IMG/VR virus record: IMGVR_UViG_3300029179_000011
Span: 1 to 40,163 of that record
Length of the DNA stretch: 40,163 nt
Direction: 5' to 3' (one strand)
Source: a virus
Lineage: Duplodnaviria; Caudoviricetes
Shown: positions 1 to 40,024 of the stretch, piece after piece
How positions within the stretch are numbered: the first letter of the stretch is position 1
How the letters are laid out: the number at the start of each line of letters is the position of its first letter
The notes under the pieces: model-generated
The model's database searches: none
The model's input: only the letters and a program-made list of their open reading frames with translations
Told to the model about the DNA's origin: nothing
Position numbers and translations under genes: made by a program

Positions 1-119
1 TTGGTTAGACCGAAATCCCAAGGATCTGTCCATACAGACCATGATGGATAAATACTACCAATATTAGACCAAGTCCTATTGGTGGAACGTCTTAGAGTTC
101 CATAGGTAGTGAAGCTCTC
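1..119. repeat. Terminal direct repeat, left copy (circular assembly overlap)
   Basis: Bases 1-119 are identical to 40025-40143; the reading frame of the split tail gene is continuous across the join. Confidence 0.97.
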
Positions 120-1901
120 TTCAAAGGTGGCCCAGTTATTCTCTCTGTAATTATAGAGAAGAGTGCGAGAATTGAATTTTACGTTTGTGCGATTTGAAGG
201 GCAGAAGGTGAAGTAGACAAATTCTTTTTGGTAGTCTCGAACTGCCGTAATTCTAAAGGATTTATTTTGGGCTTGAGCGATATCAAAGACTTCATCGGGG
301 ATCTGGAGGTCAATCCTTTGAACGCTGGTAGAGGTAGTCATCGTGATTCCATAAGTACCAATCGAGAGCATTCCGGTATCTAATTTGATACCCGCAAAGG
401 TGCTGATCGATCCCAGTTCGGCGCTAACTGTCTGGAAGACAAAGGGTAGTGTGTCATTAGAAGTAAAAATGAGCTTGAGAGGTTGAGTCTCAAATAGGGA
501 GATCACAATATCCTCATTTTCACCCCACGTAACGATCTGATCGTCAATAGGAGCACCAATGAACCCCCCTCTTCCAGCTACGTTTTGGTACCAGGCTTCT
601 ACTTGAGGCTGCTGACCAGCCAAATCCACAGGAAGCGGATTGGTATAGAAGGGAGTCCCAACTTGGGAATAGACCACTCGGTTAGGGTATTGCTGCGCTC
701 CTGGAGAGACTTGAGAAGTTCTTAAATAGACGTTTCCAAAGAGGAGTCTATTTTTAAAGGGAAGGATTAGCTTCGCTCCCACTAAGTACATGGGATTAGG
801 ATTAGTGACGGGATCATAAGCACTGAGTGGAGGAGCGAAATTCACCCATCCTGGATTATTAGGCGGTGGCACAGAGGTCGGATCTCCATCATACCAGCGG
901 ATTCCATCCTCAGTAGGTGTAATGCCCGATGAGGTAAGGGATTGGAAAATCCCCGTATTATTGATGGCCATGGCACTCGAATCTAAAGGAATGCTGAAGG
1001 TGGTAGGGGTTAATACGGTGATTTGGAAAGAGCGTCCATTTAGATTAGCTATCCCATCAGCACTCGAATTCTCATTGAACCATACCCAGTCGTTAGTGAC
1101 TAGATTATGGGGAACGGCAGTCGTTATGACTGTCGGATTGGCATTCGTGACAGTTAAAATATTTTGAAAATGAAAACCAGGATTTCCATTGGTAGCCCAC
1201 ATGCATCCCGTGGCTGTATTTGTATTGAGGATGGTAGTCAGACCTAAGTAGTTGACAGTCCAGAACTGCTGATAATCTTGGCCATTCCAGACAAAAGGCG
1301 TGCCTGTATTTTTATAGAAGGTCACATCATAGAATTGATTGAGTCCCTGATCGAATCCATAGCTATATTTTTGATCGAAGGCAATCAGGATTGGCTGCGG
1401 GCTGTTGCCCACATTGAAGTCTTCCAAACCAAGAACGGGCAATGCGGGATAGTAGCTGAATGTAATTGTAACGGCTACTCCAGCACCTGCGGTATGTATA
1501 AGTGTCACGCTGCCAGTGGTATAATTTATCGTTCCACTGTTCCCTGGTGTAACTGAAGTGAGCGTCCCATCCCCTTGATCGGTAAAAACAATAGGCCCAG
1601 CGATAGTGATTACCACTGTTCCAGGCACGATTTGTGCATCAGGCTCTCCTGTAATGGGAGGGACGAGTGTAGAATAGATATTAAACGTCCAAGGAGAAGC
1701 ACCAGTTAATCCTAGAGAGCGGTTTGTCAGATCTCTGCGTAACCGAGCTAAAAACTGATCGCCTCTCTTGCGATAGGCTTTTCCTCTGAAAAGATAGAAA
1801 TTACTGAGTACAGGGAAAGCGTCATTATTGATATTGAACGCAGTAAGATCTTTTTCAAGACCTGTCTTAAAATTAGATATTACTAGCCTTTGTAATGACA
1901 T
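1..1901 (-). CDS. Tail nozzle / packaged-DNA stabilisation protein (P22 gp10 / T7 gp12-like), N-terminal part; continues across the origin into 40024-39301, about 874 aa in total
   Basis: ATG at 1901 (MSLQRLVISNFKTGLEKDLTAFNINNDAFPVLSNFYLFRG...). Absent from the ORF track, consistent with the frame running off base 1 without a stop. In frame with 39301..39981 after circularisation; lies between the adaptor and ejection genes. Confidence 0.75.
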   Translation of the reverse strand, partial: MSLQRLVISNFKTGLEKDLTAFNINNDAFPVLSNFYLFRGKAYRKRGDQFLARLRRDLTNRSLGLTGASPWTFNIYSTLVPPITGEPDAQIVPGTVVITIAGPIVFTDQGDGTLTSVTPGNSGTINYTTGSVTLIHTAGAGVAVTITFSYYPALPVLGLEDFNVGNSPQPILIAFDQKYSYGFDQGLNQFYDVTFYKNTGTPFVWNGQDYQQFWTVNYLGLTTILNTNTATGCMWATNGNPGFHFQNILTVTNANPTVITTAVPHNLVTNDWVWFNENSSADGIANLNGRSFQITVLTPTTFSIPLDSSAMAINNTGIFQSLTSSGITPTEDGIRWYDGDPTSVPPPNNPGWVNFAPPLSAYDPVTNPNPMYLVGAKLILPFKNRLLFGNVYLRTSQVSPGAQQYPNRVVYSQVGTPFYTNPLPVDLAGQQPQVEAWYQNVAGRGGFIGAPIDDQIVTWGENEDIVISLFETQPLKLIFTSNDTLPFVFQTVSAELGSISTFAGIKLDTGMLSIGTYGITMTTSTSVQRIDLQIPDEVFDIAQAQNKSFRITAVRDYQKEFVYFTFCPSNRTNVKFNSRTLLYNYRENNWATFEESFTTYGTLRRSTNRTWSNIGSIYPSWSVWTDPWDFGLT

Positions 1902-1904
1902 CTA

Positions 1905-2537
1905 TCACCCATAGTTCAATAACACTGCAAATCCGATCCACGTAGTGCTTCCATCTGTAAATCCTGCTCCGTCTTGCCGAATCATCTGGATCACCACGTT
2001 GTTGACCGCTTTAGATTGAACTGAAACGATCGGCTGCGCTCCAAATCCAGAGAAGGTATAGAGAGCCACATAGTCGGTATTTGGAAGAGATTGGTTAAAG
2101 TTAAACCGATATTGCCCTAATCCTAATCGTGTGACTGGAGTCACAGGGTCTAGATTGAGCGATCCAGGAGCTATAACTGGCACGACACCTACAGATGACT
2201 GACCAAAAGCCCAAATGGGAACCATAGGAAAGTTTAGAGTCGTATTATCCCTTCTCCAGAAAGGTCGAGTAACTGAAGCGGTGGTAAGACCAAACTGAAC
2301 ACCTTCATTCAGCCCAGGCGTGGGGATTATATCTCCAGGAGGGTTAGCGGTAGGTAAACCAGGGAGAGTCACCTTTGCGTGCTTCCTTCCCTCTACTGGA
2401 GTGGTATTCGTCCAAGGATAGTGATCACCAGTCGTTCCATATCCCGTATTGAGAGTCTGGAAGTTCTGAAGGATCTGATCCTGAGAATCCGAAGGGTCAT
2501 CTCCAGGTTGGGGAATATTAGGGGTATAGCTCGTCAT
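1905..2537 (-). CDS. Putative tail-associated structural protein (short fibre-like)
   Basis: 210 aa; N-terminal YTPNIPQPGDDPSDSQDQILQNF anchor-like segment and beta-rich C-terminus; within the structural operon. Confidence 0.55.
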   Translation of the reverse strand: MTSYTPNIPQPGDDPSDSQDQILQNFQTLNTGYGTTGDHYPWTNTTPVEGRKHAKVTLPGLPTANPPGDIIPTPGLNEGVQFGLTTASVTRPFWRRDNTTLNFPMVPIWAFGQSSVGVVPVIAPGSLNLDPVTPVTRLGLGQYRFNFNQSLPNTDYVALYTFSGFGAQPIVSVQSKAVNNVVIQMIRQDGAGFTDGSTTWIGFAVLLNYG

Positions 2538-2845: not shown

Positions 2846-3994
2846 CTAATATTGAGTATAAAGGTAACTATTAGCAGAGGTTTGACCGCTAAAGATGGTG
2901 GGCGTTCTTACGACTGCGTTTTGTCTACTTGTCTTTCTAAGTACTAAGTTCTCTTGCTCTCTAAATCTTCCTTCATAGCGATCGTATTGATCCCAATCCC
3001 CGTTATCAGAGAGGATCTTACGTGCGGCTCCGAGTGAGATGTATTCAGCCATGTAGGCAAATGGGAATGCCGCCGTGGAGCTGAAGAAAACCTGAGGTGT
3101 CACGTAGGCATCTACCTGGATCTTGTAGGCGCGATCGGGGACTGGATAGACCTTAAAGATCTGATTGAAGTAAAGAGCGATCCTAGGCCTTCCTGATGAG
3201 AATGGAGAGGTTTGTAGTTCGATAGGCACTTGATCAGGGACAGGCTGAGCAAACCAACTGAAGATCACTTCCCCTGTGTCATAGTTAACCGTTCCGGCTC
3301 CTCCTCCATTAGGGGGAGTTCCTGTGAGCTGATTACCTATGATATTTTGGAATGTCTCATCGGTCTCAATAAGGATGCCGAGTCCATTAGGATCAATGAA
3401 GCTACTATCAACTATGTAGTGTTGCACTCCTCCTAGATCTACATAAGTAATGTAAACATAAGGTTTTAAATTTCCTAAGTCGTCAATGAAAGCGCGAAGA
3501 ATAGGGCTTCTTCCACTATTCATCGTATAAGGGCCAAGAGTTCCATCTCCTAGAAGAGGGATTTCATTGAGTACCAACTCAGGGAAAACGTTATAGAATT
3601 GTTCGGTCGATTGAAACCATCCCATCTCTACGCCATCGCAATAGATAGGGGGCCGGAATTCATGGTAAAGAGGTACTGGAGTCTGCTGAACCGTGGCAGG
3701 AGGAACAGGGTTATCATTGAAAGGGGGAGGGTTAGGATTGGGAGGGAAAACCCATGACTGACGAGGAGAGAAAGGCGCCCGATATTCAAAGATATTTGCT
3801 TGAGTCTCAAAGGTATATTGCCTTTTCATCTCAATCAATTGGACTCTTTCGGCGACGTCATAGACCCAGAAACGATTGATATAATCTCCGATGGTCTCAT
3901 TACTGATCACCTGGGGAGAGGGGCTTTTAATAAGCCTCCTCACCCAGGTAATCATATCCGCAAAGATCCCACCTGCTACGGGATTTAGGCTCAT
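2846..3994 (-). CDS. Head-tail adaptor (tail tubular protein A-like)
   Basis: 382 aa; helical N-terminus and C-terminal GRP.IALYFNQ.FKVYPVPDRAY...EYISLGAARKI pattern typical of podoviral adaptors; position after the capsid genes. Confidence 0.6.
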   Translation of the reverse strand: MSLNPVAGGIFADMITWVRRLIKSPSPQVISNETIGDYINRFWVYDVAERVQLIEMKRQYTFETQANIFEYRAPFSPRQSWVFPPNPNPPPFNDNPVPPATVQQTPVPLYHEFRPPIYCDGVEMGWFQSTEQFYNVFPELVLNEIPLLGDGTLGPYTMNSGRSPILRAFIDDLGNLKPYVYITYVDLGGVQHYIVDSSFIDPNGLGILIETDETFQNIIGNQLTGTPPNGGGAGTVNYDTGEVIFSWFAQPVPDQVPIELQTSPFSSGRPRIALYFNQIFKVYPVPDRAYKIQVDAYVTPQVFFSSTAAFPFAYMAEYISLGAARKILSDNGDWDQYDRYEGRFREQENLVLRKTSRQNAVVRTPTIFSGQTSANSYLYTQY

Positions 3995-6026: not shown

Positions 6027-6977
6027 TTATGCCGCTAAAGTACATCTAACGTTTCGGAGCCATGTCTCTTGCAAGATCGCCTGAGTCTGAGCGAATTTAA
6101 CGCCCAGAGTACCGTTCAGGGCGAGAGGCCCAGAAAAGATCGGCGGTCTGTAAAGCAGTTGGCTTGAATACCCGTCCTGGTCTATGTGTGCGTAGGATTC
6201 CCTAGCGATCATCATGTTGTTAAACACGTCGTTTCCATTCATGGAAGCTGCGCGTTGAACTGCTGATTCTGAGCTAGTTAAGATCCTAGCATTCAGTAAG
6301 GCTCCATATTCGCTGTAAATCACGTCATTTTGGTTCGGGTAGTTCCAAGAGGCAGTGAATTGCTGAATAGCGTCGAAAGTCGGCTGTAACTCTGTTGAAC
6401 AGAGTAAAAAGTAAGCCGCTCTTACTGGTGCTGTACCAAAACGGTCTTCCCCTTGCTTACCGGTTAGGAATTTGAATGCGTTTGCTGTATCCAAAGATGC
6501 AGCTACTGCACTTATATCCCTTACAGTTAGCTCAGTAGGATTGTCTCCGTTAGTGCCCCCACGGCAGTTATAGACCGAAGCAGCAGAGAGCAAGAAGTCT
6601 CTAAGGATGATATCCTCAGCTTGTCTCATTGCGACGCCCAAGCGCTCAGTTACCCATGAGAGGACTGGATCCTGGTCTTGGATAACGACCTGCTCGTTAA
6701 GGATGACAGATGTGCCATAGAAGGCCATCGCGGCATCGATAATCTCGCGGGTTGCCACTTGGGAAGGGGGTTCGATACCTGTGTTCCCTAATTGAACAAC
6801 AGGAGGTTGCAGGGGGACTGGGCGCAAGAAGCGCATAGTAGTACCACCCTGTCTTGGCATGCTGTATTTTTCCGCCGGAATTATATAGTTAAAATTCGGG
6901 GTCGGAACAGACAGCATCCCTGGTGCTAGCGACTGTAAAATAGGCGCTGGCAAGTTGCTTGTGGTTGTGATACTCAT
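6027..6977 (-). CDS. Major capsid protein, N4-gp56 family
   Basis: 316 aa; MP..GGTT.RF.R..PL, YG..V.L.EQV, D.ILRD.L and P..SGPLA..GT.G.KF motifs recognised as N4-gp56-like; follows the scaffold gene. Confidence 0.85.
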   Translation of the reverse strand: MSITTTSNLPAPILQSLAPGMLSVPTPNFNYIIPAEKYSMPRQGGTTMRFLRPVPLQPPVVQLGNTGIEPPSQVATREIIDAAMAFYGTSVILNEQVVIQDQDPVLSWVTERLGVAMRQAEDIILRDFLLSAASVYNCRGGTNGDNPTELTVRDISAVAASLDTANAFKFLTGKQGEDRFGTAPVRAAYFLLCSTELQPTFDAIQQFTASWNYPNQNDVIYSEYGALLNARILTSSESAVQRAASMNGNDVFNNMMIARESYAHIDQDGYSSQLLYRPPIFSGPLALNGTLGVKFAQTQAILQETWLRNVRCTLAA

Positions 6978-8764: not shown

Positions 8765-8989
8765 ATGCAATGGATTCAAGTTTTTACGATTATCGTGTCT
8801 ACTTTTGGGATTACATCGGGATTCTTCTTATGGGCACGCCGAGAGACGAACACCGATATTAAGGAAATTCGGGGAATGATAATGGGATTGGGATCGAAAT
8901 TAGATAAAGCTAATGACGAAATGAAACGGGAGTCTAGGGAATATCATGGGAGACTCTGTTTGATAGAGGAAAGAATGAAAAAATGCTGA
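8765..8989 (+). CDS. Small protein with N-terminal TM helix and coiled coil (paralogue of 35361..35576)
   Basis: ATG at 8765; MQWIQVFTIIV...FFLW.R.E...E.REYHGRLCLIEER. Confidence 0.7.
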   Translation: MQWIQVFTIIVSTFGITSGFFLWARRETNTDIKEIRGMIMGLGSKLDKANDEMKRESREYHGRLCLIEERMKKC

Positions 8990-9399: not shown

Positions 9400-9615
9400 T
9401 TAGTGTCTATAGCCTTCTTTCTGTCTAGCGGCATTCGAGGCGCTTACGCCTTGATTTTGTTCAGAATGGATTTGTTGATCCGTATCTGGATAGTTAATTC
9501 CGCGAATCTCGCCAGCCTTTGGCAATTCTCTACGATGAGCAGACTCAGGAAAATAATTATCTGAATCTGGTTCGCCTCGTCTCATATCCATTTTTCTTTC
9601 TGTCATTGGCTTCAT
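9400..9615 (-). CDS. Small hypothetical protein
   Basis: 71 aa, ATGA overlap with the portal stop codon. Confidence 0.65.
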   Translation of the reverse strand: MKPMTERKMDMRRGEPDSDNYFPESAHRRELPKAGEIRGINYPDTDQQIHSEQNQGVSASNAARQKEGYRH

Positions 9616-11735
9616 TGTGGTGCACTCCCAATAGGTTGCTCATTCCCCATTCTAGTAGATGGGGAATTATTGTTCAAAAAGTTTGTCAAGAATTTATTTG
9701 AATCAGCAGTTAATTTTGCGTCCATCTTTTCTCTGTCCTCTTGAACTTCCTGTTCCTGCTGCATTTTATCCAGTTTCATCTGATTGGCAGCGACTTCTAT
9801 TTGACCGAATTGACTTACCGATCCTAAGAGTTTTTCTAAAGCCTCCATTCGGGCTTTAAGAGCATTAGCTCTATTTTGTGTGATCTCAGAGAGTCTCTCT
9901 TCGAATAGGCCGACGTTAGACTCAGCTCTTCCGTGACGCTCTCTTGCCATGGCAATATCAGAGACCGAACGGGCTTGTAGATTCTGCATCTGAGCTTCCA
10001 GAAGATTCTGTTCCATCATCTGCTGCTGTTTCTGTACTTCAGCCATTTCAGCCTGTTGCTGCTCAACTGCCTCAATGATCTCATTCTTGCCCTGGATGGT
10101 CGCGTATTGAAGGATGAATTTGGGAGGGATAATACCACCAAGCATCTCGTTAAGCTGCATCATTTGAACAAACTGCTGCTGTTGCTGAATGGTAGTATTG
10201 AGACCCTCCGCGACTAAACAGTCAAATTTAGAGAAGATTTTAAATTCAAATTGAGGAGAGACCCTCTTGCCCAGAATCCTCTGCATCTTGGCAGGAGACC
10301 AGCGCCTAATGATTTTCTCTTCCAGACGTCCAAAGAGTTTGAAAGCGTAGTCCCATTGATCGAAATATTTCTGAAGGGTGACAAGTCCTGCTCCTTGGCG
10401 GAGCATCTCTGTGATTCCCGCTTTGGAATCGTCAGCCATTCCCATAAGTTCTTGGTTTACACCAGATGTACGGAAGATAAAGTCCACCAGCTGATTGGCA
10501 AGTTCCATATCGGAAGGAGGGACAGCATTGGGAATGATCTTCTCAATGTCAGTCATCTCATAGCCGTCTTTAATAATAATGTCTTTACCTTGACCCGCGT
10601 ATCTTAAGTCATCTTCATTAACGATTGCGTTCTCTTTACGTTTCCATCCAGAATTGATGGAACTCTCTGATATATCGTGATTTAAAATAATTCTACGATT
10701 TAAAAGAAATTGAACATCGCGCATTGCCCTACAGAGTGATCGGTCACGAAGATCGTACTGGGCCACCTGAGGGTCTCGGTTCCAGAACACAGGGACAAAA
10801 GGACACTCGTCGAAGCCCAAGGGGTTAAATCCTTGATACATCATGGTCTCATTAAGGATAACTACCTCTTTCCAGGTGGGGACTTCCACTTCGATCATCT
10901 CAAAATCTTGCTCGGTTTCCGTGACCATATCGAATAGAAATTCAGCCTTATCAATATAGTCATATGCGATGCCAGATCGACGGTTGTAGAGCATCTTTTT
11001 CTTACGGCTGCTCTGATACCACACAGTACTAAGGACTAACAGGTCATTCCTGCTCAAATTGTAGTTTTCAGGTAGGAAATAGAACTTCCCATTACGGTTT
11101 CCAAATCCACTCATAGTGTCGATCAAATCGGCTCGGTGCCGGAATTTTTTCTTAGCCTCTCCCTTAGAGATATACTGTTGCGTCCAGACGACATTACAGT
11201 CAGACATTCCTGGATCTCTCCAGTAGGGATCGGTCATAAATTCATTATAGGCCCAAATGCGGACGTCCAGAGTTCCATTTATAGGATCATCCGTAAAATC
11301 TAAATAGGGTTGCATGAGGCAAAGACCGCTGACTGCTGAGTACTCATAAGCCTTAGAAACTTTTTCTAAGATTCCCCGATAGCTATTGGCATAGGTGATG
11401 AGTTTAGTGAGGTCATCCGCATCTTCCTGATCCGATCCTTCAATAGGGAGGAAGTTAACCGATTTCCTATGCTGCCTTTGATATCCAGTGACCATGTTGA
11501 TCGGCTGCTGGATAAAATTGAAATGGAACTGCTGATAGTTAAACTGGGGATAAAAGTTAAAATAAGAGTTTATGAAGCGCTGCTCTCCTGCGTAGAAGAG
11601 AGTATCGATGTTCGCTTGCTGCCATCTTGCCTGTTCTACTGGCTCGAATCGTCCATAAAGATTATCCAACCACATTTTGATATTTGACTCGTTGGGTTCT
11701 TCATCGACGTCCCAAGGTGGGAAATACATGGGCAT
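9612..11735 (-). CDS. Portal protein (P22-like)
   Basis: 707 aa; FYAGEQ, FN.IQQPINMVTGYQRQ, CPFVP, MRDVQ..LNRR, SGVNQELMG motifs and a Gln-rich C-terminal barrel helix. Confidence 0.85.
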   Translation of the reverse strand: MPMYFPPWDVDEEPNESNIKMWLDNLYGRFEPVEQARWQQANIDTLFYAGEQRFINSYFNFYPQFNYQQFHFNFIQQPINMVTGYQRQHRKSVNFLPIEGSDQEDADDLTKLITYANSYRGILEKVSKAYEYSAVSGLCLMQPYLDFTDDPINGTLDVRIWAYNEFMTDPYWRDPGMSDCNVVWTQQYISKGEAKKKFRHRADLIDTMSGFGNRNGKFYFLPENYNLSRNDLLVLSTVWYQSSRKKKMLYNRRSGIAYDYIDKAEFLFDMVTETEQDFEMIEVEVPTWKEVVILNETMMYQGFNPLGFDECPFVPVFWNRDPQVAQYDLRDRSLCRAMRDVQFLLNRRIILNHDISESSINSGWKRKENAIVNEDDLRYAGQGKDIIIKDGYEMTDIEKIIPNAVPPSDMELANQLVDFIFRTSGVNQELMGMADDSKAGITEMLRQGAGLVTLQKYFDQWDYAFKLFGRLEEKIIRRWSPAKMQRILGKRVSPQFEFKIFSKFDCLVAEGLNTTIQQQQQFVQMMQLNEMLGGIIPPKFILQYATIQGKNEIIEAVEQQQAEMAEVQKQQQMMEQNLLEAQMQNLQARSVSDIAMARERHGRAESNVGLFEERLSEITQNRANALKARMEALEKLLGSVSQFGQIEVAANQMKLDKMQQEQEVQEDREKMDAKLTADSNKFLTNFLNNNSPSTRMGNEQPIGSAPQ

Positions 11736-13851: not shown

Positions 13852-13855
13852 CACA

Positions 13856-14008
13856 ATGAAGAAGCAGACGAAGAAAGACAAAATGGATGAGAGCCTCGGA
13901 ATGAAAAGAGGTAAGGAATCCACAAAAGAGCAGGCTTATCCTGCACGTAGACATGAGTCTATGGGTATGAAAAAAGCTATTATGAAGAAATCCTCACGTA
14001 AGAGGTAA
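13856..14008 (+). CDS. Small Lys/Met-rich protein (50 aa, not in ORF track)
   Basis: MKKQTKKDKMDESLGMKRGKESTKEQAYPARRHESMGMKKAIMKKSSRKR; AGGA RBS; fills the gap exactly. Confidence 0.65.
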   Translation: MKKQTKKDKMDESLGMKRGKESTKEQAYPARRHESMGMKKAIMKKSSRKR

Positions 14009-14011
14009 ACT

Positions 14012-14350
14012 ATGGGTCTTCCAAATAATTCGAAAGCTGATTGGGGTCAAGAACTCACTATTGATGCTGCCACCTTCACTGGGATGGCTCAGTCCATGGG
14101 GACATTTACCTCGGCTCCTTCAGTGATTATCGTCCAAAACGATACGAATCAGACAGTTTCTATTCGTCGTTTTTCAGATCCTTCGCAAGTCGGGATTTCT
14201 TTTGTAAGTGGAGTCCGGCTTGTTCTGGATTTGGAAAGCAACCGAGCTATGGCTGACTTCTTTTCATTTATGGCTAATAGACCTGTTCTTGTAAGCGGAG
14301 CTGCGGGAGCTGGACTATTTAAAATAGCGTATGTCTATGGAGTGGCATGA
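14012..14350 (+). CDS. Small beta-rich virion protein (putative)
   Basis: 112 aa in the fibre cluster, GAGG RBS. Confidence 0.6.
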   Translation: MGLPNNSKADWGQELTIDAATFTGMAQSMGTFTSAPSVIIVQNDTNQTVSIRRFSDPSQVGISFVSGVRLVLDLESNRAMADFFSFMANRPVLVSGAAGAGLFKIAYVYGVA

Positions 14351-14898
14351 GTCAGATATTTAGAGATTCTACCTCTGGGCCAGTACCACCAACTGTGCCC
14401 GAGCAATTTACGGCTGATGACGGTACCATCGGTGTACCAGTCGCCAATAATTTTAATCTCTTATCTCGAGCCACTACCGAAAATAACTATAATGGAATTC
14501 AGACGACTACCGATCCCAATGGATCGGCCAATCACTATACTGAGTTGACTAACCGATTATTCGGAGGAGTTTCCACAAACGATTCCACTCCCACCGCCAT
14601 CATTACCTTTCCCTTAGGAGCAACTCCAGGGACTTTCACATTTGATGGATTCATAAGCGCTCACAATACCTCGGTTCCCTCAGGAGCTGGCTACTTCTTC
14701 ACAGCAGCTATGAGAACCACAGGGGCAGCAGCTATCGAAATCGGGGTGGAATTCACCTCAGAGTTTGAAGAAGCTGCATTAGCCGCGTCTGATGTCACGA
14801 TCAGCGCAGTAGGAAATAATTTCGTAATCACTGTAACGGGCATCGCGGCAACCGCTATCGATTGGCTCGCACAGGCTACTTACTCGAGGACACCATAA
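14347..14898 (+). CDS. Tail fibre-associated protein
   Basis: 183 aa; carries a diverged copy of the F.(A/G)D.G...P.A.N.N module. Confidence 0.6.
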   Translation: MSQIFRDSTSGPVPPTVPEQFTADDGTIGVPVANNFNLLSRATTENNYNGIQTTTDPNGSANHYTELTNRLFGGVSTNDSTPTAIITFPLGATPGTFTFDGFISAHNTSVPSGAGYFFTAAMRTTGAAAIEIGVEFTSEFEEAALAASDVTISAVGNNFVITVTGIAATAIDWLAQATYSRTP

Positions 14899-21685: not shown

Positions 21686-21717
21686 AACGGGCGATTTACC
21701 TAGGAGTGAACGGATAT

Positions 21718-21969: not shown

Positions 21970-21988
21970 TTATTTTCTGGAGAATAAG

Positions 21989-22254: not shown

Positions 22255-22298
22255 AACTATTTAGCAATGATATTTACCAACAAGGATTTCTCCTTATA
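22226..22298 (-). ncRNA. Candidate ~70-nt antisense RNA covering the initiator translation-initiation region
   Basis: Minus-strand TTGCTG (22333-22328)-17nt-TACATT (22310-22305) with extended TGn, ending at the U-tailed hairpin. Confidence 0.45.
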
Positions 22299-29224: not shown

Positions 29225-29716
29225 ATGGAAAACGTAGAAGAAGTCCCAGTTTCTGATGAGAATAGAGAAGCCAATGGCTACTTTAAGAAAGGCCATTCGC
29301 TGGGAGGCCGTCCCCGCCTCTATACTCCAGAGAAACTATCTGAGCTTGCTAAAAGCCTAATCGAGTGGATCGAAGCCGCTCGTAAGAGAAATAAATTCGT
29401 CCTCCTATCTGATTGGTGCTTCAAGGAGCGCTTCCCTCCCTTCCATTTTGCTGAGAATATCGCTCGTAGTGAGGAGTTCAAAGAGGCATATCTATGGGCT
29501 AAGGCGTGGCAAGAGCATGCCGTTGCAAGTGGCGCTCTTAGTAAAGATCTAGACGCCCGATTCTCTCAGTTCTTCCTATCGGTCAATCACGGCTGGAGCC
29601 TTGATAAAGATCGTGAGAATAAGGAAGAAAAGCAAAAGTCTAATCTTGAGAGGATGTCTGACTCTATTATCGATGAAGTCCACTCCAATGATGAGGATTC
29701 TGAGGGTCATGAATGA
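29225..29716 (+). CDS. terS: Terminase small subunit
   Basis: G.FKKG...GGRPR.YT, EF.EAY..AK..QE and F.L...HGW motifs (P22 gp3-like); coupled to terL. Confidence 0.75.
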   Translation: MENVEEVPVSDENREANGYFKKGHSLGGRPRLYTPEKLSELAKSLIEWIEAARKRNKFVLLSDWCFKERFPPFHFAENIARSEEFKEAYLWAKAWQEHAVASGALSKDLDARFSQFFLSVNHGWSLDKDRENKEEKQKSNLERMSDSIIDEVHSNDEDSEGHE

Positions 29717-31038
29717 TAGGCTTCTCATCTAAGCAAAAGCTCTGCTTTGCAAAGTCTTACTCCCGAATCAATATAGCTGAAGGCGCCGTCTCTTCAGGTA
29801 AATCCCACGTCATGATGTACCGGTTTTTGGATGAATTACGCAAAGGCCCAATGGGTGACGGTGTAACCGGATATGATTTTATGATAGGAGGGAAGTCGGA
29901 AACCTCTGTAATTAGGAACGTTCTGCGTCCCTTAGACAAGGAATTAGGAAATATTTTAAGGTATAATCATTCACAGAGGTATTTCGATTTATGGGGTAAC
30001 CGCGTCTATATAGTAGGTGCAAATGACGAAAGAGCCGAAGGTAAAATCCGAGGATGGACATTAGGGGGAGCGCTCATTGATGAAGCCACACTCTCTCCGC
30101 AGAGTTTTTTCAAGATGGCTCTTTCACGTTTACGTATTAATGGCGCTAAGATGCTCGCTACTACAAACCCTGATTCTAAATTTCATTGGTTAAAAACAGA
30201 TTTTTTAGATAAGTTCGCAGATGATCCACAAGAATTGGCAAGTTTTAAGTTTAAACTCGATGATAACCCCTATCTCTCAGATTCATACAAACAATCCCTC
30301 AAAAAGGAATATGCCGGACTCTGGTATAGGCGTTTTATTGAGGGTGAATGGGTGCAGGCAGAGGGCGCTATCTACGACTTCTTTGACCACGACAGGCACA
30401 CTGTCAAGGAAGCCCCTACCTACGCTAAGTACTTCTGTCTCGGTGTCGATTATGGCCAAAAAAATCCTTTCGCCGCAGTGCTCGTCGGATTCAATGACGA
30501 TCACCATCCCGCTATTTGGGTGGAGAAAGAGTACTATTGGGACTCAGTTGCCATGGGATACTCTAAAACAGATGCCGAATATGCGGAAGACCTGCGCAGA
30601 GAGTTCTCCGGATACCCAATCAAGCTTATCTACCTTGACCCTTCAGCTCAGTCTTTCGAGACCGAGCTTAAGCGAGCCAGAATGCCTGTCAAGCAGGCAA
30701 AGAATGACGTCATCGACGGAATCCGATTTGTTGGGACACTTCTGTCTCAAGGGGATCTCGTTATCAAAAGGCAATGCCTCAATCTTCTAAAGGAATTTGA
30801 AAGTTATGTGTGGGACGAAAAATCTATTAGATTGGGAGAGGATAAGCCAATCAAATTACGAGATCACGCTCTGGATGCTCTGCGGTATGTACTTTTCACT
30901 CATTGGGGAAATAAGCATTCTCTAAAAGAGACTACTGCCGAAGATTCCCGTCAGGCTCGTTACAACCAAAACCCGATGGGACAGCAGGGATTCGGGCCGA
31001 ATTCTTGGGGTTGGCAGGTGCAGGGAAGGGGCTTCTAA
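29713..31038 (+). CDS. terL: Terminase large subunit (PBSX family)
   Basis: Walker A GAVSSGKS, LIDEA, TTNPDS..HWLK, DNPYL, GVDYG..NP, DPSA and DHALDALRY. Confidence 0.95.
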   Translation: MIGFSSKQKLCFAKSYSRINIAEGAVSSGKSHVMMYRFLDELRKGPMGDGVTGYDFMIGGKSETSVIRNVLRPLDKELGNILRYNHSQRYFDLWGNRVYIVGANDERAEGKIRGWTLGGALIDEATLSPQSFFKMALSRLRINGAKMLATTNPDSKFHWLKTDFLDKFADDPQELASFKFKLDDNPYLSDSYKQSLKKEYAGLWYRRFIEGEWVQAEGAIYDFFDHDRHTVKEAPTYAKYFCLGVDYGQKNPFAAVLVGFNDDHHPAIWVEKEYYWDSVAMGYSKTDAEYAEDLRREFSGYPIKLIYLDPSAQSFETELKRARMPVKQAKNDVIDGIRFVGTLLSQGDLVIKRQCLNLLKEFESYVWDEKSIRLGEDKPIKLRDHALDALRYVLFTHWGNKHSLKETTAEDSRQARYNQNPMGQQGFGPNSWGWQVQGRGF

Positions 31039-31415: not shown

Positions 31416-31727
31416 TCATAAGTCCTTTTTTGGGTTAAACGGTCTAGAGCAAATATAGACAGCATGCGGATGAGAGGCACCTTCACCTAGCAGATGCTTC
31501 TGAATGTAGGCCTGAAACTTCAGTGCATCTTCCATTTCGCTAAAAACAGCCAGGATCACGTTCATCACGTTATCTGCTGCCATTCCTACGACATGGACTT
31601 TTACCTCTTCAGTCTCTTTCTCTAGGCCCGTATTGGTTACAGTTTTGATTGGTACATTTTCCATTCTTATCGAGTGCCCATCCACATCTTCCGCATTGTC
31701 CATAATATTCGGCGGCATAATAGCCAT
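31416..31727 (-). CDS. Hypothetical protein (true start probably downstream)
   Basis: C-terminal half looks globular; the 5' part overlaps the upstream gene. Confidence 0.4.
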   Translation of the reverse strand: MAIMPPNIMDNAEDVDGHSIRMENVPIKTVTNTGLEKETEEVKVHVVGMAADNVMNVILAVFSEMEDALKFQAYIQKHLLGEGASHPHAVYICSRPFNPKKDL

Positions 31728-31890
31728 TCCCTAAATAGGAAAGGGATTGTGCAGGCATAAATCCGTCGGGCATATTAAGGAAAATTCCCTCTTCTGTCAC
31801 GTAGACTTTCTCATTAGGCAACGATACGCTAACAGCGTACATTTGGGAGCCAAATAATAGGGTCAGAAAAAGTGATAGGATTTTTTTCAT
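31609..31890 (-). CDS. Small secreted protein with C-terminal Cys4 cluster
   Basis: Signal peptide MKKILSLFLTLLFGSQMYA; CGRCG...C....C; AAGGA RBS. Confidence 0.75.
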   Translation of the reverse strand: MKKILSLFLTLLFGSQMYAVSVSLPNEKVYVTEEGIFLNMPDGFMPAQSLSYLGNGYYAAEYYGQCGRCGWALDKNGKCTNQNCNQYGPRERD

Positions 31891-32015: not shown

Positions 32016-32417
32016 TTATTTAACTTGAGCTGCTTGGGAAGCCTGAACAGCAAGTTCAGCTTTGAGATTGGCTGCACTGGCCTCCTCAATTTCCTTTTGC
32101 TTGCTAGCGAGCGCTTCATTATCCACAGTTGGATTATTAATGTAAGCCCAAGCTTGAACAGGGTAAGACTTAGTAGGATGAGGAAGATCATAATTCCCAT
32201 TAGCATCTCTATAAGTAAGAATGAGGTTAGGCGCAATTTGGCCCATATTACACCATAATACGATCCAGCGATCGGGATTTGGGTGTTCAACGTGGAAGTT
32301 TTTCCATTCTAGTTGAGCTGTTTGGAATGTCATGCGTTTCATGACTTCCTTAGGATCGATATAGGGAGGGTGTTGAGGCTTTTCAAGCTTTTCAACTTTT
32401 TTATCTTGTTTAGTCAT
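32016..32417 (-). CDS. Hypothetical protein (DUF551-like core)
   Basis: W......P......VLW ... VQAWAY; coupled to the upstream gene. Confidence 0.6.
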   Translation of the reverse strand: MTKQDKKVEKLEKPQHPPYIDPKEVMKRMTFQTAQLEWKNFHVEHPNPDRWIVLWCNMGQIAPNLILTYRDANGNYDLPHPTKSYPVQAWAYINNPTVDNEALASKQKEIEEASAANLKAELAVQASQAAQVK

Positions 32418-32670
32418 CTGTTTTGCTCTCTGCTTTTAGTTTTTGTTGGATTGCTTCTAATATCCAAGCGGTGCGCGTCAGAGCAGCCCTTTCCTTCACT
32501 TTCTGATCTACAGCTTCGAAAATGTGATTGGGTATCCTTAAACAGATAGTTTTCCAATCAGGCTTTTCAATTTTAATTTCCATATCGGATTTGACGTGCG
32601 CCCCACCGGCTATATATCTCAGAGTATCCTCAACGTCCTCAAATTTGTCTATTTTTTTGTTTACACCCAT
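32410..32670 (-). CDS. Ribbon-helix-helix centromere-binding partner of ParA (ParG-like)
   Basis: Likely ATG 32670; YIAGGA segment, then WKTICLRIP..IFE.VD.......LTRTAWILEAIQQKL RHH pattern; directly downstream of parA. Confidence 0.75.
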   Translation of the reverse strand: MGVNKKIDKFEDVEDTLRYIAGGAHVKSDMEIKIEKPDWKTICLRIPNHIFEAVDQKVKERAALTRTAWILEAIQQKLKAESKTDD

Positions 32671-32752
32671 ATATGTCTCACATATCTCATTTATATCTTT
32701 ATCATATATTACAACATTCTCGCAAATATATGGCATCATATATGGCATATAT
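32669..32752. repeat. ATAT array with ~11-bp phasing (candidate centromere site 2)
   Basis: ATAT at 32671, 32682, 32693, 32704, 32726, 32738, 32749. Confidence 0.6.
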
Positions 32753-33391
32753 CTCATCAGCAGCCTTCTGATCGCGTTCTTTGCGCTCTAATTCATAAAC
32801 CCCCAATCCTTGAGAAGCCGCATTTCCAAAGGCTTTACGATGGCCGATAAAGGCCTTGATTAGCTTGAAATGAGGACATTCTTCTAGGATTTTGAAGGCC
32901 TCATCATTATCTACTCCGCGGGCATCAGCCTGATTAATACAGACAAGAACCTTCATATTCCGATTGAGGGTAAGAACTCCATCAATTAGCTCTTTGACTT
33001 GGCCAACCGTCCAGACATCGAAGGAACGAGGCTTGAAAGGAATCACAAAGTAGTCGCATATGCATAGAGCTGATCGTTGAGAAGTTGTATCTCGCCCTCC
33101 AGTATCTACGATAATCTCATCATAATCGTTCTTTAGGCGTTTGAGTTGCTCATATAAGAGTTTTCCCCCTAATTTAATGGTAGGAAAACTTAAGGCTTGC
33201 CATTCCCCAAGTTCTTCTACTTTCTGCTTCCAGTGATGATCTCTTTGCTCAGCCCAATCTGAAGCAGATCCCTGTTCGTCAGCATCGACAAGTAAGACTT
33301 TACGGCCTAGATGGGCTAAGACGACAGCCAGGTTAGTGGCCAGGGTAGTCTTGCCTGTTCCACCTTTAATTCCCCCTATGACAACTATCAT
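32702..33391 (-). CDS. parA: ParA/ParF-type partition ATPase (type Ib)
   Basis: Deviant Walker [28 protein letters not shown] and R.AF..A...GLGV.E motifs; no N-terminal HTH. Confidence 0.95.
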
Positions 33392-35107: not shown

Positions 35108-35121
35108 CGCCTATAGTCCTT

Positions 35122-35149
35122 ACGTCTGATAATATATTTTATGTTACAG
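35122..35149 (+). other. dif-like XerCD recombination site
   Basis: ACGTCTGATAA-TATATT-TTATGTTACAG; 11-6-11 layout, right arm 9/11 identical to the E. coli XerD arm TTATGTTAAAT, left arm ending in ATAA. Confidence 0.75.
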
Positions 35150-35360: not shown

Positions 35361-35576
35361 ATGGATTATGGAATTATCATTGCCGTGACTGGAGTTGGCA
35401 TAGCCATGGTAGGAGTAATGATCTCAATGATGTTTTGGATGAGAGGTGAATCAAACTCTTTGAGAGCAGAAGCTAAAGAAGACCGACGAGATATTTTGGG
35501 GATGGTTAGAGCTATCGAACTTGAAATGAAAGACTTCCATCATAAATTAATAGAAATAGAGAGGGCTAGAAAATGA
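35361..35576 (+). CDS. Small protein with N-terminal TM helix and coiled coil (paralogue of 8765..8989)
   Basis: AAGGAG RBS; ...MFWMRGESNSLR...EMKDFHHKLIEIER. Confidence 0.8.
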   Translation: MDYGIIIAVTGVGIAMVGVMISMMFWMRGESNSLRAEAKEDRRDILGMVRAIELEMKDFHHKLIEIERARK

Positions 35577-35686
35577 TAGGGTTTATCTTATTTATAGCTG
35601 GGATCTTTGGCATGCTAATTGCTTTTACTCCCTCAGATACAATAGAAGATATGGAAATGCGAGGGAAGGAAGACGGCAGTATTTAA
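35573..35686 (+). CDS. Small single-TM protein (37 aa, not in ORF track)
   Basis: ATGA-coupled; MIGFILFIAGIFGMLIAFTPSDTIEDMEMRGKEDGSI. Confidence 0.45.
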   Translation: MIGFILFIAGIFGMLIAFTPSDTIEDMEMRGKEDGSI

Positions 35687-37077
35687 GGAGCGAGGCTCTC
35701 CTCTAACTCTTCCTGGTGCTCTTTTAGAGCTTTTTCTAGAGCTTTGAGGCTCTTTTCCGTCTTAGCCACGTTGTTAGAGGCTGCGTTTTTCAGTACTTCT
35801 TGATAATGACGACGAAGCTCAGGACTCTTAACCACTCTATATCCCAACTTAAAGGCCTGATAGAGTCCTAATGCACTTCCTCCTGCTGCTCCAGCTAACC
35901 CAGTGATAGCAGGGGAGAAAATAGCTCCAGCACCAGCAGCAGCCGAAGTACCGAGTCCTAAAAGAGTCTTCATTATAGGATTGGTGATTTTATTTCCGAA
36001 ATGTTTCCGGAAGAAGTTGGAGAGTTTATTGCTCTGCTCATAGACCGCAAAAGCTCTATTGGCTTGTTTGTGGAGATCCAGAAATTCAGGATTTTGAATC
36101 TCTCCATATTTGGTTTGAGCTTCCACAATCTTATCTTTTACTTGATTGAGGTTACGAACGGCTTTTTGTTTGACTTCTCTAGGCGCCTGGATTTCGAATC
36201 CACCCGCTTCCTTGATGGCCTCATTAATTTTAGTTTGAAATTTAGGAAGTTCTTCCACAGAAATCACGCCCTCATCAGAGATGGCTGAGATTACTTCATC
36301 GATCTTATTGAGAGCAGGCTTATCGGAAGTGGCTATACCACCTTTTTTTAATTCCTTTTGCAGATCTTGCATGGAAGTTTTGAGAGCATGAGCGTCTGTT
36401 TTTGCACCTTCTGGAATAGTGCTATTACGCTGTTTAAACAAATCCCCAGCGAATTTCTTAGCCCCTCCTTGAGAGATCCTTCCACCTAAAAGGTCGAGAA
36501 ATACCATGACTCCTAAGCCCCCATAAGTGCCCTCTTTCTCGCCAAATTTACTCTTGAGGCCTTCCTTGGTAAGAGTAGATGCAATTGGAATGCCAAGATT
36601 ACGAGCGAATCCATATCCCCATGATCCTGGGAGAGCCATAGAGGCAAATGTCTCAGAGGCTTCATCTACAGCCTTTTCAAACTCATTCTTAGGCTTAGTG
36701 TAGCCAGCTGTTAGCTTTTCACTGCCTTTCTTAAGAACGTCTGAACTCAGATAGCCAATAGGAGCTTTAGGAAGGCCGAGGAGAGAAGTGATGAAATTAG
36801 AGATATCACCAGGAGCACCAAGGACAGTCTCTGCAATACGGGAGGTTGTACGGGCTTGTGCGCGCTCAATTTCTCGTTCCAGATCATTCTCACCCTCAAA
36901 GGGAAATTCTTGAGGTTTTTGTTGTTCAACTGGAACAGGTTCGGGTTCTTTTTCTTCTTCTAAATCAGCGAATACGATATTCTCAGCCGCAGCCGGAGTT
37001 TGCGGCTTAACTTTTTCCTCTTCGATCTCAATTTCTGGTTCCTCTTCATCTAAGAAGTCGAAAACAGTCTTAGGCAT
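35683..37077 (-). CDS. Putative DNA ejection / internal virion protein
   Basis: About 464 aa; acidic N-terminus, helical body, Gly/Ala-rich hydrophobic C-terminal segment; last gene of the structural operon. Confidence 0.55.
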   Translation of the reverse strand: MPKTVFDFLDEEEPEIEIEEEKVKPQTPAAAENIVFADLEEEKEPEPVPVEQQKPQEFPFEGENDLEREIERAQARTTSRIAETVLGAPGDISNFITSLLGLPKAPIGYLSSDVLKKGSEKLTAGYTKPKNEFEKAVDEASETFASMALPGSWGYGFARNLGIPIASTLTKEGLKSKFGEKEGTYGGLGVMVFLDLLGGRISQGGAKKFAGDLFKQRNSTIPEGAKTDAHALKTSMQDLQKELKKGGIATSDKPALNKIDEVISAISDEGVISVEELPKFQTKINEAIKEAGGFEIQAPREVKQKAVRNLNQVKDKIVEAQTKYGEIQNPEFLDLHKQANRAFAVYEQSNKLSNFFRKHFGNKITNPIMKTLLGLGTSAAAGAGAIFSPAITGLAGAAGGSALGLYQAFKLGYRVVKSPELRRHYQEVLKNAASNNVAKTEKSLKALEKALKEHQEELEESLAP

Positions 37078-38278
37078 TAGAAACCCTCGCAAATATTTCT
37101 ACATCATATCCAGCCTTACGGGCTGCACTTTCGGCATCTTTACCGTATCTCTGCTTGAAGACTTTAGCCTTTTCACGAGTTAAAGGCGTTCCTTTAGGTA
37201 CTTGCCTAATCACTGCGAGTTCATCAGGATTTTGCTCTTCTTTAGTCCTTTGAATCTGGTACATAAGCTGATCGCGGCGTTTATCTTCCCATTTCTGCAT
37301 ACGCTCGCCAGCTCTCTTCCCAATATTTCCACGCACAAATCCATATTCGGCCATGTCTTCATCTTCTAATTGATCGGTGAGTTTGATTTTTTCTTCTTCA
37401 CGATCAACCCAGTAATTCATGAGGTCAGCTACGATCATATTCGCTTCTTGATCTCGTCCAATTCTGACCATCGCATCGCTAATCTGCTGCTCAATCCACT
37501 GGTTGGGACGGCTTCCAGCTTTAGCTAAGTTATTGATAAAAAAGTCTTTAGTGGCAGATTTAAGAAGGGCGGAGTTTGCATTTCTAAGAGGCTCTACACC
37601 TAATACATCAGCAAACCAGGCCCCCCACCCAGAAGTATCTCCAGCAGACGCGGACTGTTTAATTAGATTTGCTGCTGTTTTCTTCTCTTGGATAGAATCT
37701 CGGATTTCGTCGGTCTTCTTGAGGATGTCTCCGGCTCTCTTCCATTCAAATTCCCTATCCGCGATAAATTTGTCTCTGAGGTCTTTTTCTTGTTTGTGGG
37801 TTTCTTTTCGGGTGGCTTCTTGCTGTTTTTGCAAGATGTTACCCAATTGCGGATTGAGGATAGAAGCGATTGTAACTTGCTCATCTGATAAATCTCCTGG
37901 TTTAAATCCACCTGATTGCCCTAATCCAGGCATTCCTTCAGATGGAGAGGTTTCTGTATCTAAGAATGGACTAGCCCCGCCTGCTCCTCCTCCCATACCT
38001 AATGCTTCTAATAGTTGAGCATTACGCTGATCTTTAGCTTTTTCTTTTAATAGAGCTGCTTGAACTGAGGGTTCCATTGCTACGTCTGGTAATCCCAAAG
38101 CCTTAGCAGTTGCCTTTTGATTGGCGATTTTTCTCTCTTCTGCTTCTACGTCTGATTTGCGTTTCCTCTCTTCTTTTTGTCTCTCTAGGAATCTGTCAAT
38201 CGTGCTATCCACTCCTGGAGAAGCATGTTGAAGAAATCTGGAGAGTTTTGAAGGGGATTGATCAATTATCTGAACCAT
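37070..38278 (-). CDS. Putative DNA ejection / internal virion protein
   Basis: 402 aa, helical and charged, at the podoviral ejection-gene position. Confidence 0.55.
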   Translation of the reverse strand: MVQIIDQSPSKLSRFLQHASPGVDSTIDRFLERQKEERKRKSDVEAEERKIANQKATAKALGLPDVAMEPSVQAALLKEKAKDQRNAQLLEALGMGGGAGGASPFLDTETSPSEGMPGLGQSGGFKPGDLSDEQVTIASILNPQLGNILQKQQEATRKETHKQEKDLRDKFIADREFEWKRAGDILKKTDEIRDSIQEKKTAANLIKQSASAGDTSGWGAWFADVLGVEPLRNANSALLKSATKDFFINNLAKAGSRPNQWIEQQISDAMVRIGRDQEANMIVADLMNYWVDREEEKIKLTDQLEDEDMAEYGFVRGNIGKRAGERMQKWEDKRRDQLMYQIQRTKEEQNPDELAVIRQVPKGTPLTREKAKVFKQRYGKDAESAARKAGYDVEIFARVSNA

Positions 38279-38285
38279 TTCGTCC

Positions 38286-38801
38286 TCACAAGAACAAAGG
38301 AATTATTTTCATTAACATCGAGGTGATATCACCGGCTGTATCCCACCCACTGCTTTTCTTCTCTAGGAACGAATCATAGGGCTTCTGACTCAAGAGATTC
38401 TGAGAGAGTCCCAATAGCCTTTCGATTGCTCCTTGCTGAAGACCTAGCCTCTGGGATTGCAGATTCTGGGCAAGATCTCCAGCTGCTCCCGATGTGGCCT
38501 GTTGGAAGGCAGAGGAGTCTAAAGCTCCAGAGCCAAAGCCTGCGAACCGGCTACCTAGCTGTCCAATAGCTTTATTAAATGAGCTGTAAGCTGGAGCTTC
38601 GAGTTGCTCAAACATCGACTCATCACCTCCTGAGAGTCTAGAGAGAAAATCTAATCCTCCTTCTAGCCCTCCTCCTCCACTTAGACCACCTAAGAGCTTT
38701 TGGAAAAGTTGCATCTGCCCAGGGGTGAAATTAGGCACATTGCGTAGTTTATACCCTGAGATATTCGCTTTTGGTGCAGAAACACCGGCTGGAGCTGACA
38801 T
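38286..38801 (-). CDS. Putative small DNA-transfer (pilot) protein
   Basis: 171 aa, Gly/Ser/Gln-rich (FTP.QMQL, GSRFAG.GSGA..SS.FQQA). Confidence 0.55.
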   Translation of the reverse strand: MSAPAGVSAPKANISGYKLRNVPNFTPGQMQLFQKLLGGLSGGGGLEGGLDFLSRLSGGDESMFEQLEAPAYSSFNKAIGQLGSRFAGFGSGALDSSAFQQATSGAAGDLAQNLQSQRLGLQQGAIERLLGLSQNLLSQKPYDSFLEKKSSGWDTAGDITSMLMKIIPLFL

Positions 38802-38809
38802 ATTGCCCT

Positions 38810-39304
38810 CTAATTTAAAATATATTCTAACACTATCATAGCACTAAATCCTGTCCAATTACCAGAATTTGTAACAATTTCTATATTCCTCGTGGTTTTA
38901 TTAACCCGAAGGTAAGGCGCATCATCTGTGCGCGTCATATTCCATGGAGTGAGAGGAACGGCAATCGTGGTCGATTCTGCTGTGCCATAGATATTTACGA
39001 ATTGAGTGGTGGCAGTAATCGCTATATTTGTAGGAATCGTGGCCGTTCCAGCATTTGGGAGAGCTGCTAGCGTATAGACTTGGCGGTAGCTCTGCCTTTT
39101 TCTCTCATTCTGGACATCATTATAGTATTTATTTCTCGTATCGATCTGAACTTTATCGTAGATTCCACATGTACTGATATTTACGTTGAATGCCGTATCA
39201 TTATAGGACTTAGAGAGAACTGTCTCTAGCTCTACAGGGTTTTGTGGAAATTTCCGAGAGGTGAGAAGGTAAGGGGATTGAAACTGATTAGAATTAGAAC
39301 TCAT
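38810..39304 (-). CDS. Putative tail-associated structural protein
   Basis: 164 aa, ATGA-coupled to the nozzle gene, beta-rich C-terminus ending IVLEY. Confidence 0.55.
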   Translation of the reverse strand: MSSNSNQFQSPYLLTSRKFPQNPVELETVLSKSYNDTAFNVNISTCGIYDKVQIDTRNKYYNDVQNERKRQSYRQVYTLAALPNAGTATIPTNIAITATTQFVNIYGTAESTTIAVPLTPWNMTRTDDAPYLRVNKTTRNIEIVTNSGNWTGFSAMIVLEYILN

Positions 39305-40024
39305 ACGAGGATCGGCCCCTTATAGAGATCGATTGCCAAGGCGTGCAGGATGATCTCCTCTTGGTTAACATTTAGATCTCTCATCTGCAATTCACTGAGA
39401 GTGATCCCTAATTGGACGGTATCCCCATTGATACTGGGACTTAATCGATGCCAAATCTGGGCTTGTCCTGCGCCAAAAGCCGTATCAATTTCTGGACAGG
39501 TGAGCATCACGTTCGTATAGGCCAAATAGGGCTGAATATTAGGATCGTTAGAGGCAGTAGCGGAGTTTTGGCTTGCATAGAGGTTAACTGTGACCTGAGG
39601 TGGCATATTACCCTCATCAGGGAAAGGAGTGGCCTCTAAGAGCAAGCGCGATGTTCCTATTCGGACTTGTCTGCCTTCTTGCCAGTAGATAGGGAATTGC
39701 TTGGTTTGTAGGAATGGCCGACTTAATTTAGCGAAGACCCCGCCACCGATATACACTCCAGTAAACACATCATTTATAGAGAAGACGTCAGCTGTTTGGA
39801 CTGTGACTTGCTGAACGGTTCCATTGAGATTCGTAGATCCCATCATTTGGGAAATATAGATAAAGTCGCCTGTTAGAAGGCCGTGATCTGGTGAAGTGAT
39901 CGTATTGGGGATCACGCCTGTATTAATGGCTTGAATAAATCGGGTTTGCTGCTCTGAAGTTCCGAGTCCTCTCATCACCACAAAGCCCTGCTGATTCCCT
40001 CCGATAATAACTGGCTGGAAGGAG
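39301..40024 (-). CDS. Tail nozzle / DNA stabilisation protein, C-terminal part (joined to 1..1901)
   Basis: Frame stays open upstream of 39981 through the terminal repeat (...WSVWTDPWDFGLTNSFQPVIIGGNQQGFVVMRG...). Confidence 0.75.

Follow-up and report, generated by a model that had tools for sequence, protein, structure and literature searches.

Members of Chlamydiamicrovirus (Microviridae) are tailless and carry a single-stranded DNA (ssDNA) genome of a few kb in a Microviridae capsid, and older microscopy recorded phage-like particles in environmental chlamydiae. Chlamydiamicrovirus is the only group of chlamydial phages named in the accessible parts of PMC8936141 and PMC5010888; there, the former states that attempts at gene transfer using these phages failed, and the latter that the CRISPR (clustered regularly interspaced short palindromic repeat) spacers of Protochlamydia match nothing known. 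In Kostlbacher 2021 (PMC7846284), two chlamydial plasmids, from Protochlamydia massiliensis and Criblamydia sequanensis, are reported to carry 'phage group' genes, namely those for terminase and tail tip protein L. The literature searched, which covered few subscription papers, yielded no published genome of a Chlamydiota tailed phage. Here we analyze IMG/VR record IMGVR_UViG_3300029179_000011, a stretch of 40,163 nucleotides (hereafter the window) that holds the complete circular genome of a tailed phage whose host likely belongs to the Chlamydiota.

Two features suggest this host. The window carries a dif site of the chlamydial type, and its gene for the queuosine-precursor transporter YhhQ groups with chlamydial homologues, so a chlamydial host is likely. 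A host family cannot be named. Taken as a whole, we consider it likely that the genome is that of a tailed phage of environmental Chlamydiota, short-tailed by prediction, which probably persists as a circular plasmid-prophage. A preliminary description of the window had proposed a complete double-stranded DNA (dsDNA) tailed phage of these bacteria. The circle and its capsid, portal and terminase genes bear out the first part of that proposal; the dif site, the YhhQ tree and a ParA/ribbon-helix-helix (RHH) gene pair support the second, for reasons that differ in part from those first given.

The dif site, YhhQ and ParA

The dif pattern, taken as 18 arm bases and scored at up to two mismatches, is found in 139 of 151 Chlamydiota genomes, usually as a single copy. 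Comparison with chlamydial chromosomal dif, which the preliminary description had suggested for its dif-like site, gives exact arms in at least 72 of the 151 (a hand count over 150 rows, with 22 more unlisted). The pattern matched 25 of 101 Babelota genomes, none exactly and six at one mismatch, and 15 of 121 Pseudomonadota genomes, all at two mismatches and none exactly. For exact arms, Fisher p is 1e-20 for Chlamydiota against Babelota and 2e-23 against Pseudomonadota, values that are overstated because the genomes are related. The same arms are given as the dif of all 14 Chlamydiae in the accessible text of Kono et al. 2011 (PMC3025954).

The site also emerged from a blind DNA search. When positions 18001-38000 were compared with 300 Chlamydiota genomes, scoring two candidates per genome, 35122-35149 was recovered from seven genomes; as regards CRISPR spacers, the same comparison gave no stretch of at least 30 bases that matched perfectly. 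One Chlamydiota genome was left unscored here and in the capsid, ParA and transmembrane/coiled-coil searches. The full 28-mer differs from chlamydial copies at two to three positions, one of these copies lying on a 2.4-Mb contig, and a single base separates its 6-bp spacer from those common in chlamydiae. Comparable dif matches arose in 2 of 100 shuffled sequences, and the enteric-type dif consensus had no match in the window.

Related viruses share the site. The exact pattern occurs on 110 IMG/VR contigs, and 42 of the 80 dif-bearing contigs with flanks, at 33-44% guanine-plus-cytosine (GC), match virion genes of the window at E <= 1e-10; GC of the window is 43.4%. Three of ten relatives selected by capsid and searched whole carry dif, two of them as arm variants found in chlamydial genomes. 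In the relative with 92% capsid identity the site, again an arm variant known from chlamydial genomes, lies beside a transmembrane/coiled-coil gene and near ParA and RHH genes.

Chlamydial YhhQ presumably salvages queuine. Homologues of the window's protein occur in 89 of 101 Chlamydiota genomes (best identity 50-53%) and in 93 of 101 Babelota genomes (41-42%). In a 90-row FastTree its clade of 55 rows includes 16 chlamydial rows and none from Babelota. An IQ-TREE of 42 rows, built on 22 of the 30 chlamydial and 13 of the 15 Babelota loci and with no mixture model, placed it in a seven-row clade (99/98) where five of the six other members lie on 38-40-kb contigs; this clade nests in turn within a 19-row clade (100/98) that holds 12 Chlamydiota rows and no Babelota row. 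Constraining YhhQ to group with Babelota was rejected (approximately unbiased test, p-AU 0.012). One of the nearest genome rows is separated by zero distance from an NCBI protein with the label Chlamydiales bacterium. Among 5.8 billion proteins searched there were 113 homologues, among which the taxon names noted were Chlamydiales (a 53% cluster), TM6, Dependentiae and a single Limnocylindria label, whose bearer groups with Babelota rows.

ParA homologues at E <= 1e-20 were present in 5 of 120 Chlamydiota genomes, at a best identity of 55%. Against plasmids the best identity was 44%, with no chlamydial plasmid in the best 25 of at least 5,000 rows. No taxon name was attached to ten ParA homologues. 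A 28-row tree has a 23-row clade (100/99) that unites the window's ParA, six of seven chlamydial rows and phage rows, the last so labeled from contig size or from the content of the locus; four plasmid rows among the best-scoring fall outside it, and the seventh chlamydial row falls with the outgroup. The RHH-like gene, which comes after ParA in the window, has matches in one Chlamydiota contig, three loci of the family and one viral locus with dif, and had none among plasmids. One Chlamydiota genome has a ParA-RHH pair in the same order, carried by a contig of 230 kb. The chlamydial affinity ascribed to YhhQ and to the ParA/RHH pair in the preliminary description is supported, and YhhQ and ParA, as putative host-derived genes, nest in Chlamydiota within limited outgroups.

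Genome, virion genes and relatives

An exact terminal repeat closes the window into a circle of 40,024 bp (Table 1). The longest frame of the genome, 874 codons on the minus strand from 1901 to 39304, spans the circle junction, and sequencing-run contigs continue across it. Assembled from two runs, these contigs cover the circle with no letter in disagreement, and a single one of 23,807 bases spans terminase, ParA, dif, nozzle, capsid and portal. These contigs are not independent evidence, because the runs may be the window's own source. The final 20 bases of the record also terminate unrelated contigs and resemble a random-amplification tag.

The capsid, portal and large terminase genes make the window a member of the Caudoviricetes. 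Its tail is predicted to be short because of the nozzle: a model of the first 633 residues (predicted local distance difference test, pLDDT, 80.7) has podovirus virion or tail structures as its six best Foldseek matches (E 7e-15 to 6e-9; template-modeling score by query 0.28-0.39). The podovirus morphotype is predicted from this gene content. Family scans of the window's proteins, covering 66 open reading frames (ORFs) in two scans and then 42, gave no match to integrase, endolysin, sheath or tape-measure families, and the sole major-tail match had E 0.089. Beta-helix and pectinesterase matches in the tail-spike/fiber block fell below cut-off. The probable DNA-ejection genes are placed after the nozzle and are conserved in relatives; their proteins had no family match. 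The capsid profile had no match among solved structures, nor did YqaJ exceed 38% identity to any plasmid protein compared. The window yielded no tRNA or tmRNA, and its promoter scan was at chance level.

Table 1. Positions of features in the window.
Feature	Position	Strand	Evidence or remark
Complete circular genome	1..40024	.	1-119 repeated at 40025-40143; 40144-40163 is the tag
Tail nozzle, N-terminal 633 aa	1..1901	-	frame runs on across junction to 39304
Probable head-tail adaptor	2846..3994	-	weak: E 0.083 podovirus adaptor, E 0.012 tail family
Major capsid protein, N4-gp56-type	6027..6977	-	TIGR04387 84.8 bits vs cut-off 60; phrog_1357
Transmembrane/coiled-coil paralogue 1, possibly holin-like	8765..8989	+	
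Portal, P22-like	9612..11735	-	PF16510 E 3e-54
Three large probable tail-spike/fiber genes (659, 622-634, 491 aa)	block 11872..18241	+	predicted
Tad2-like protein	18390..18842	+	Pfam above cut-off
YhhQ queuosine-precursor transporter	18835..19551	+	TIGR00697 152 bits vs cut-off 51
YqaJ exonuclease and ERF annealing protein	19630..21121	-	family matches
Helix-turn-helix regulator, replication initiator, DnaC-like loader, RusA resolvase	21706..25336	+	family matches
Small terminase and PBSX-like large terminase	29225..31038	+	weak matches for small terminase
Cys-rich protein with signal-like start	31609..31890	-	
RHH-like ParA partner (predicted)	32410..32757	-	weak matches only
ParA partition ATPase	32702..33391	-	phrog_164 E 5e-45; 151 bits, under NF041546 cut-off 180
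dif site, chlamydial type	35122..35149	+	ACGTCTGATAA-TATATT-TTATGTTACAG
Transmembrane/coiled-coil paralogue 2, possibly holin-like	35361..35576	+	adjoins dif
Three probable DNA-ejection proteins (469, 402, 171 aa)	35683..38801	-	predicted
Tail nozzle, C-terminal part	39301..40024	-	

Several further genes stand out. On the opposite strand inside the head genes, 7941-8435 (+) encodes a 164-aa protein present in most relatives; its model is confident (pLDDT 87) and had no Foldseek match, a best Z of 3.7 and no Atlas match. The protein is unassigned, and this should not be taken as a sign of a new fold. E1-FCCH-like domains recur in four virion-region coding stretches (4524-6016, 3-1901, 39301-39981). 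The product of 8410-8763 (+) has two tandem Cys motifs resembling high-potential iron-sulfur proteins, with matches in Pfam (E 0.003) and to an NCBIfam iron oxidase (E 5e-9) that are both under cut-off, and it has no homologue in the other loci compared. Very basic small ORFs at 2534-2836, 9030-9615, 13856-14008 and 26760-27398 are conserved in relatives, and one of them is a DUF6496 member. The Tad2-like anti-defense domain lies directly upstream of YhhQ; among the compared loci its gene has a single homologue, carried by a phage contig from a Chlamydiota bin.

Comparison with 50,697 records of cultured phages gave at best 21% identity for the capsid (one record) and 21-24% for the portal (eight records), which confirms a genome with no cultured relative. 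Uncultured relatives are numerous. A capsid search of IMG/VR found 28 loci at 58-93% identity with shared gene order, and the same search of a genome collection found 12, in two Chlamydiota metagenome-assembled genomes (MAGs), one Babelota genome and nine genomes of scattered taxa. The latter nine are likely mis-binned phage contigs; neither their genomes nor the Babelota genome has dif at 0-1 mismatches. (Babelota assignments of phylum refer to a group in which the EF-Tu of three genomes is named Ca. Babeliales.) Of 400 Chlamydiota genomes, 8 had a match to the capsid profile, six at E < 1e-30, and two of these six matches lie on phage contigs with dif.

Other features of the family are recorded here in their own right. 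Related phage contigs occur in three Babelota genome bins. Many relatives have capsid genes split by insertions, probably introns; the window's is intact. In one Chlamydiota genome, a 223-kb contig includes a truncated capsid gene (31% identity) surrounded by ordinary genes. A perfect 17-bp palindrome is found in 28 of 366 compared loci (some overlapping), family members included, and is absent from the window. Finally, high-GC viral contigs with these dif arms and no family gene are likely phages of other hosts.

Host and lifestyle

A number of observations weigh against a chlamydial host. The host is deduced, and no tie by CRISPR spacer, culture or single cell was obtained. The accessible part of PMC3025954 also lists the dif arms for 5 non-Chlamydiae genomes, and the Thermodesulfovibrio, Syntrophobacter and Desulfococcus dif given there are one base from the pattern; since other genomes share the arm, dif points strongly but not uniquely to Chlamydiota. 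Of the 80 dif-bearing contigs with flanks, 38 have no family genes (13 of these at GC > 46%), and seven of the ten relatives searched whole have no dif. The trees are narrow: YhhQ was sampled from Chlamydiota and Babelota only, and the ParA tree has four outgroup rows and zero Babelota rows. Binning is equivocal as well. The nine scattered-taxon capsid loci include two archaea, and the capsid profile matched 3 of 151 Babelota genomes. Among 201 Patescibacteria it matched one, the chosen center genome, and none of the 200 others; with centers excluded, enrichment in Chlamydiota bins over Patescibacteria is not significant (p 0.11-0.13), so binning alone names no host. In a 74-row FastTree of portals, which omits the two Chlamydiota MAG loci of the genome-collection search (they have no portal), none of the 16 rows in the window's clade is binned, the closest rows that are binned belong to the scattered taxa and to one Babelota bin, and the six chlamydial-bin rows fall in the other half of the tree.

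Two further resemblances on which the preliminary description drew have also lost ground. Both transmembrane/coiled-coil paralogues are present, 29% identical to each other and with the C-terminal motif it reported, and such a gene occurs on two phage contigs binned with Chlamydiota. Their chlamydial origin was not supported, as the profile matched 1 of 150 Chlamydiota genomes, weakly (E 3e-6). Atlas neighbors are viral, the best holin match has E 0.058, and the family looks viral in character. The Cys-rich ORF likewise exists; its supposed chlamydial resemblance comes down to a 32-residue match (E 0.004) in one of five Chlamydiota genomes, and among 366 compared loci it recurs in one, a phage relative.

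Could the host lie elsewhere? Babelota (Dependentiae), another phylum of intracellular bacteria of protists, holds capsid relatives in the three genomes noted above, one of them with two phage contigs, and one Babelota-binned portal is nearer the window's than any chlamydial-binned portal in the tree. YhhQ is widespread there too (93 of 101 genomes) and the dif arms are related. None of these dif arms is exact in 101 genomes, however, the YhhQ grouping is rejected (p-AU 0.012), and Babelota-binned capsids are only 45-50% identical to that of the window; we regard this host as very improbable. Quite improbable, too, is a free-living host with a similar dif (Desulfobacterota, Nitrospirota) or an unsampled lineage, to which chlamydia-like genes passed by earlier exchange. 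The one-mismatch dif of three such genomes in the accessible part of PMC3025954 and a capsid relative binned in a Nitrospiraceae MAG favor it, the phylum-wide YhhQ, ParA and capsid-profile searches having covered other phyla; yet that MAG has no dif match, the taxon names noted among the 113 YhhQ homologues are Chlamydiales, TM6, Dependentiae and one Limnocylindria label, and family contigs with dif have 33-44% GC. That the contig is a chimera of phage and chlamydial DNA is scarcely conceivable. The record ends in a tag, and the assembly therefore had artefacts, but contigs of two runs tile the circle without a differing letter, and dif, the transmembrane/coiled-coil gene, ParA and RHH occupy the corresponding region of the 92%-capsid relative.

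If Chlamydiota are the host, we favor a plasmid-prophage with moderate confidence. The window has a partition ATPase with a DNA-binding partner (the RHH protein, by weak matches), an initiator and no integrase match, the gene content of phage-plasmids. Except for one chromosomal relic, binned relatives are separate contigs of <=41 kb, and none of the run contigs departs from the circle at dif (contigs cannot show absence); from these two observations we infer the plasmid-prophage. For a chlamydial phage, integration at chromosomal dif is a doubtful alternative and a purely lytic life a rather improbable one. The full scenario, in which the phage infects Chlamydiota and integrates at chromosomal dif through host XerCD, as CTXphi-like elements do, and is no plasmid, is unlikely. 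It would account for the missing integrase match, for a spacer so close to common chlamydial ones and for the truncated capsid gene on the 223-kb Chlamydiota contig. Against it, ParA and RHH form a plasmid-maintenance module, no intact relative flanked by host DNA appeared among the contigs examined, no loose end was seen at dif, and small ORFs scanned near dif gave no FtsK-gamma match.

With a plasmid-prophage in Chlamydiota, the phage cycle might run as follows. Virions would meet the bacterium while it is in its extracellular infectious form, or when a protist swallows both, and would inject their DNA by way of the short tail. Replication of the circle would depend on the phage's own initiator and loader and segregation on ParA and the RHH protein, and host XerCD would resolve dimers at dif. 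On induction, recombination and headful DNA packaging would follow, with exit by a route that lacks a recognizable endolysin and possibly uses the two transmembrane/coiled-coil proteins. The YhhQ gene, which the phage probably acquired from chlamydiae it infects, may raise queuine salvage during infection.

More broadly, we lean toward the view, slightly on balance, that the window represents a large undescribed family of podoviruses specialized on obligate intracellular bacteria of protists, namely Chlamydiota, with branches on Babelota; many would be plasmid-prophages, equipped with a captured queuine transporter and with a copy of the host dif through which XerCD is borrowed, and would exit without a classical endolysin. 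If true, viruses are nested in bacteria that are nested in protists across water and soil. A complete tailed-phage genome and dozens of relatives offer candidate spacer targets, a possible route of gene flow between intracellular lineages, and a basis for polymerase chain reaction or fluorescence in situ hybridization probes for detecting viruses of this kind in cultures of amoebae. The dif site is a simple host marker for viral collections. How a tailed phage would reach a bacterium inside a vacuole, and leave it, are questions this genome raises.

Comparison with known systems

N4-like phages (Schitoviridae) have a virion RNA polymerase of ~3,500 aa and a genome of ~70 kb. The window shares the N4-type capsid with N4 and has no match to N4 RNA polymerase; at 40 kb, with a longest frame of 874 codons, it is not a member of that family. 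With P22-like and other podoviruses (tails of SU10, A4, Pa223, VP1 and T7) it shares the P22-like portal, the nozzle fold, ERF and YqaJ, but at the low cultured identities given above (21% capsid, 21-24% portal).

P1 is a phage-plasmid, and CTXphi is an integrative mobile element exploiting Xer (IMEX); IMEX phages are filamentous with ssDNA. Like P1, the window has a partition ATPase and, by our reading, a circular prophage, but a chlamydial-type dif in place of the Cre/lox pair. Like CTXphi and other IMEX elements it combines a host-type dif with no integrase, whereas those phages are filamentous with ssDNA and the window is tailed.

In the accessible part of PMC12644861, unclassified viruses are predicted by iPHoP to infect Chlamydiales, and these could include members of the window's family. 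The accessible parts of PMC8242063, PMC11338181 and 10.1101/2023.03.17.533158 hold nothing on phage genomes, and no Babelota phage genome is evident in the literature found, at the level of titles and, for PMC12644861, somewhat further. Chlamydiamicrovirus likely shares the host phylum; the window, a 40-kb dsDNA tailed phage, lies outside that group. The chlamydial 'phage group' plasmids likewise place tailed-phage genes on extrachromosomal chlamydial DNA and, in the available description, have ParA without ParB. The window's portal had no match among 72,556 plasmids, and scans of its ORFs matched neither recombinase nor tail-tip families, which sets it apart from that group. Where those plasmids, as far as described in the same available text, carry a Pgp7/8 recombinase, the window carries a full podovirus-type module.

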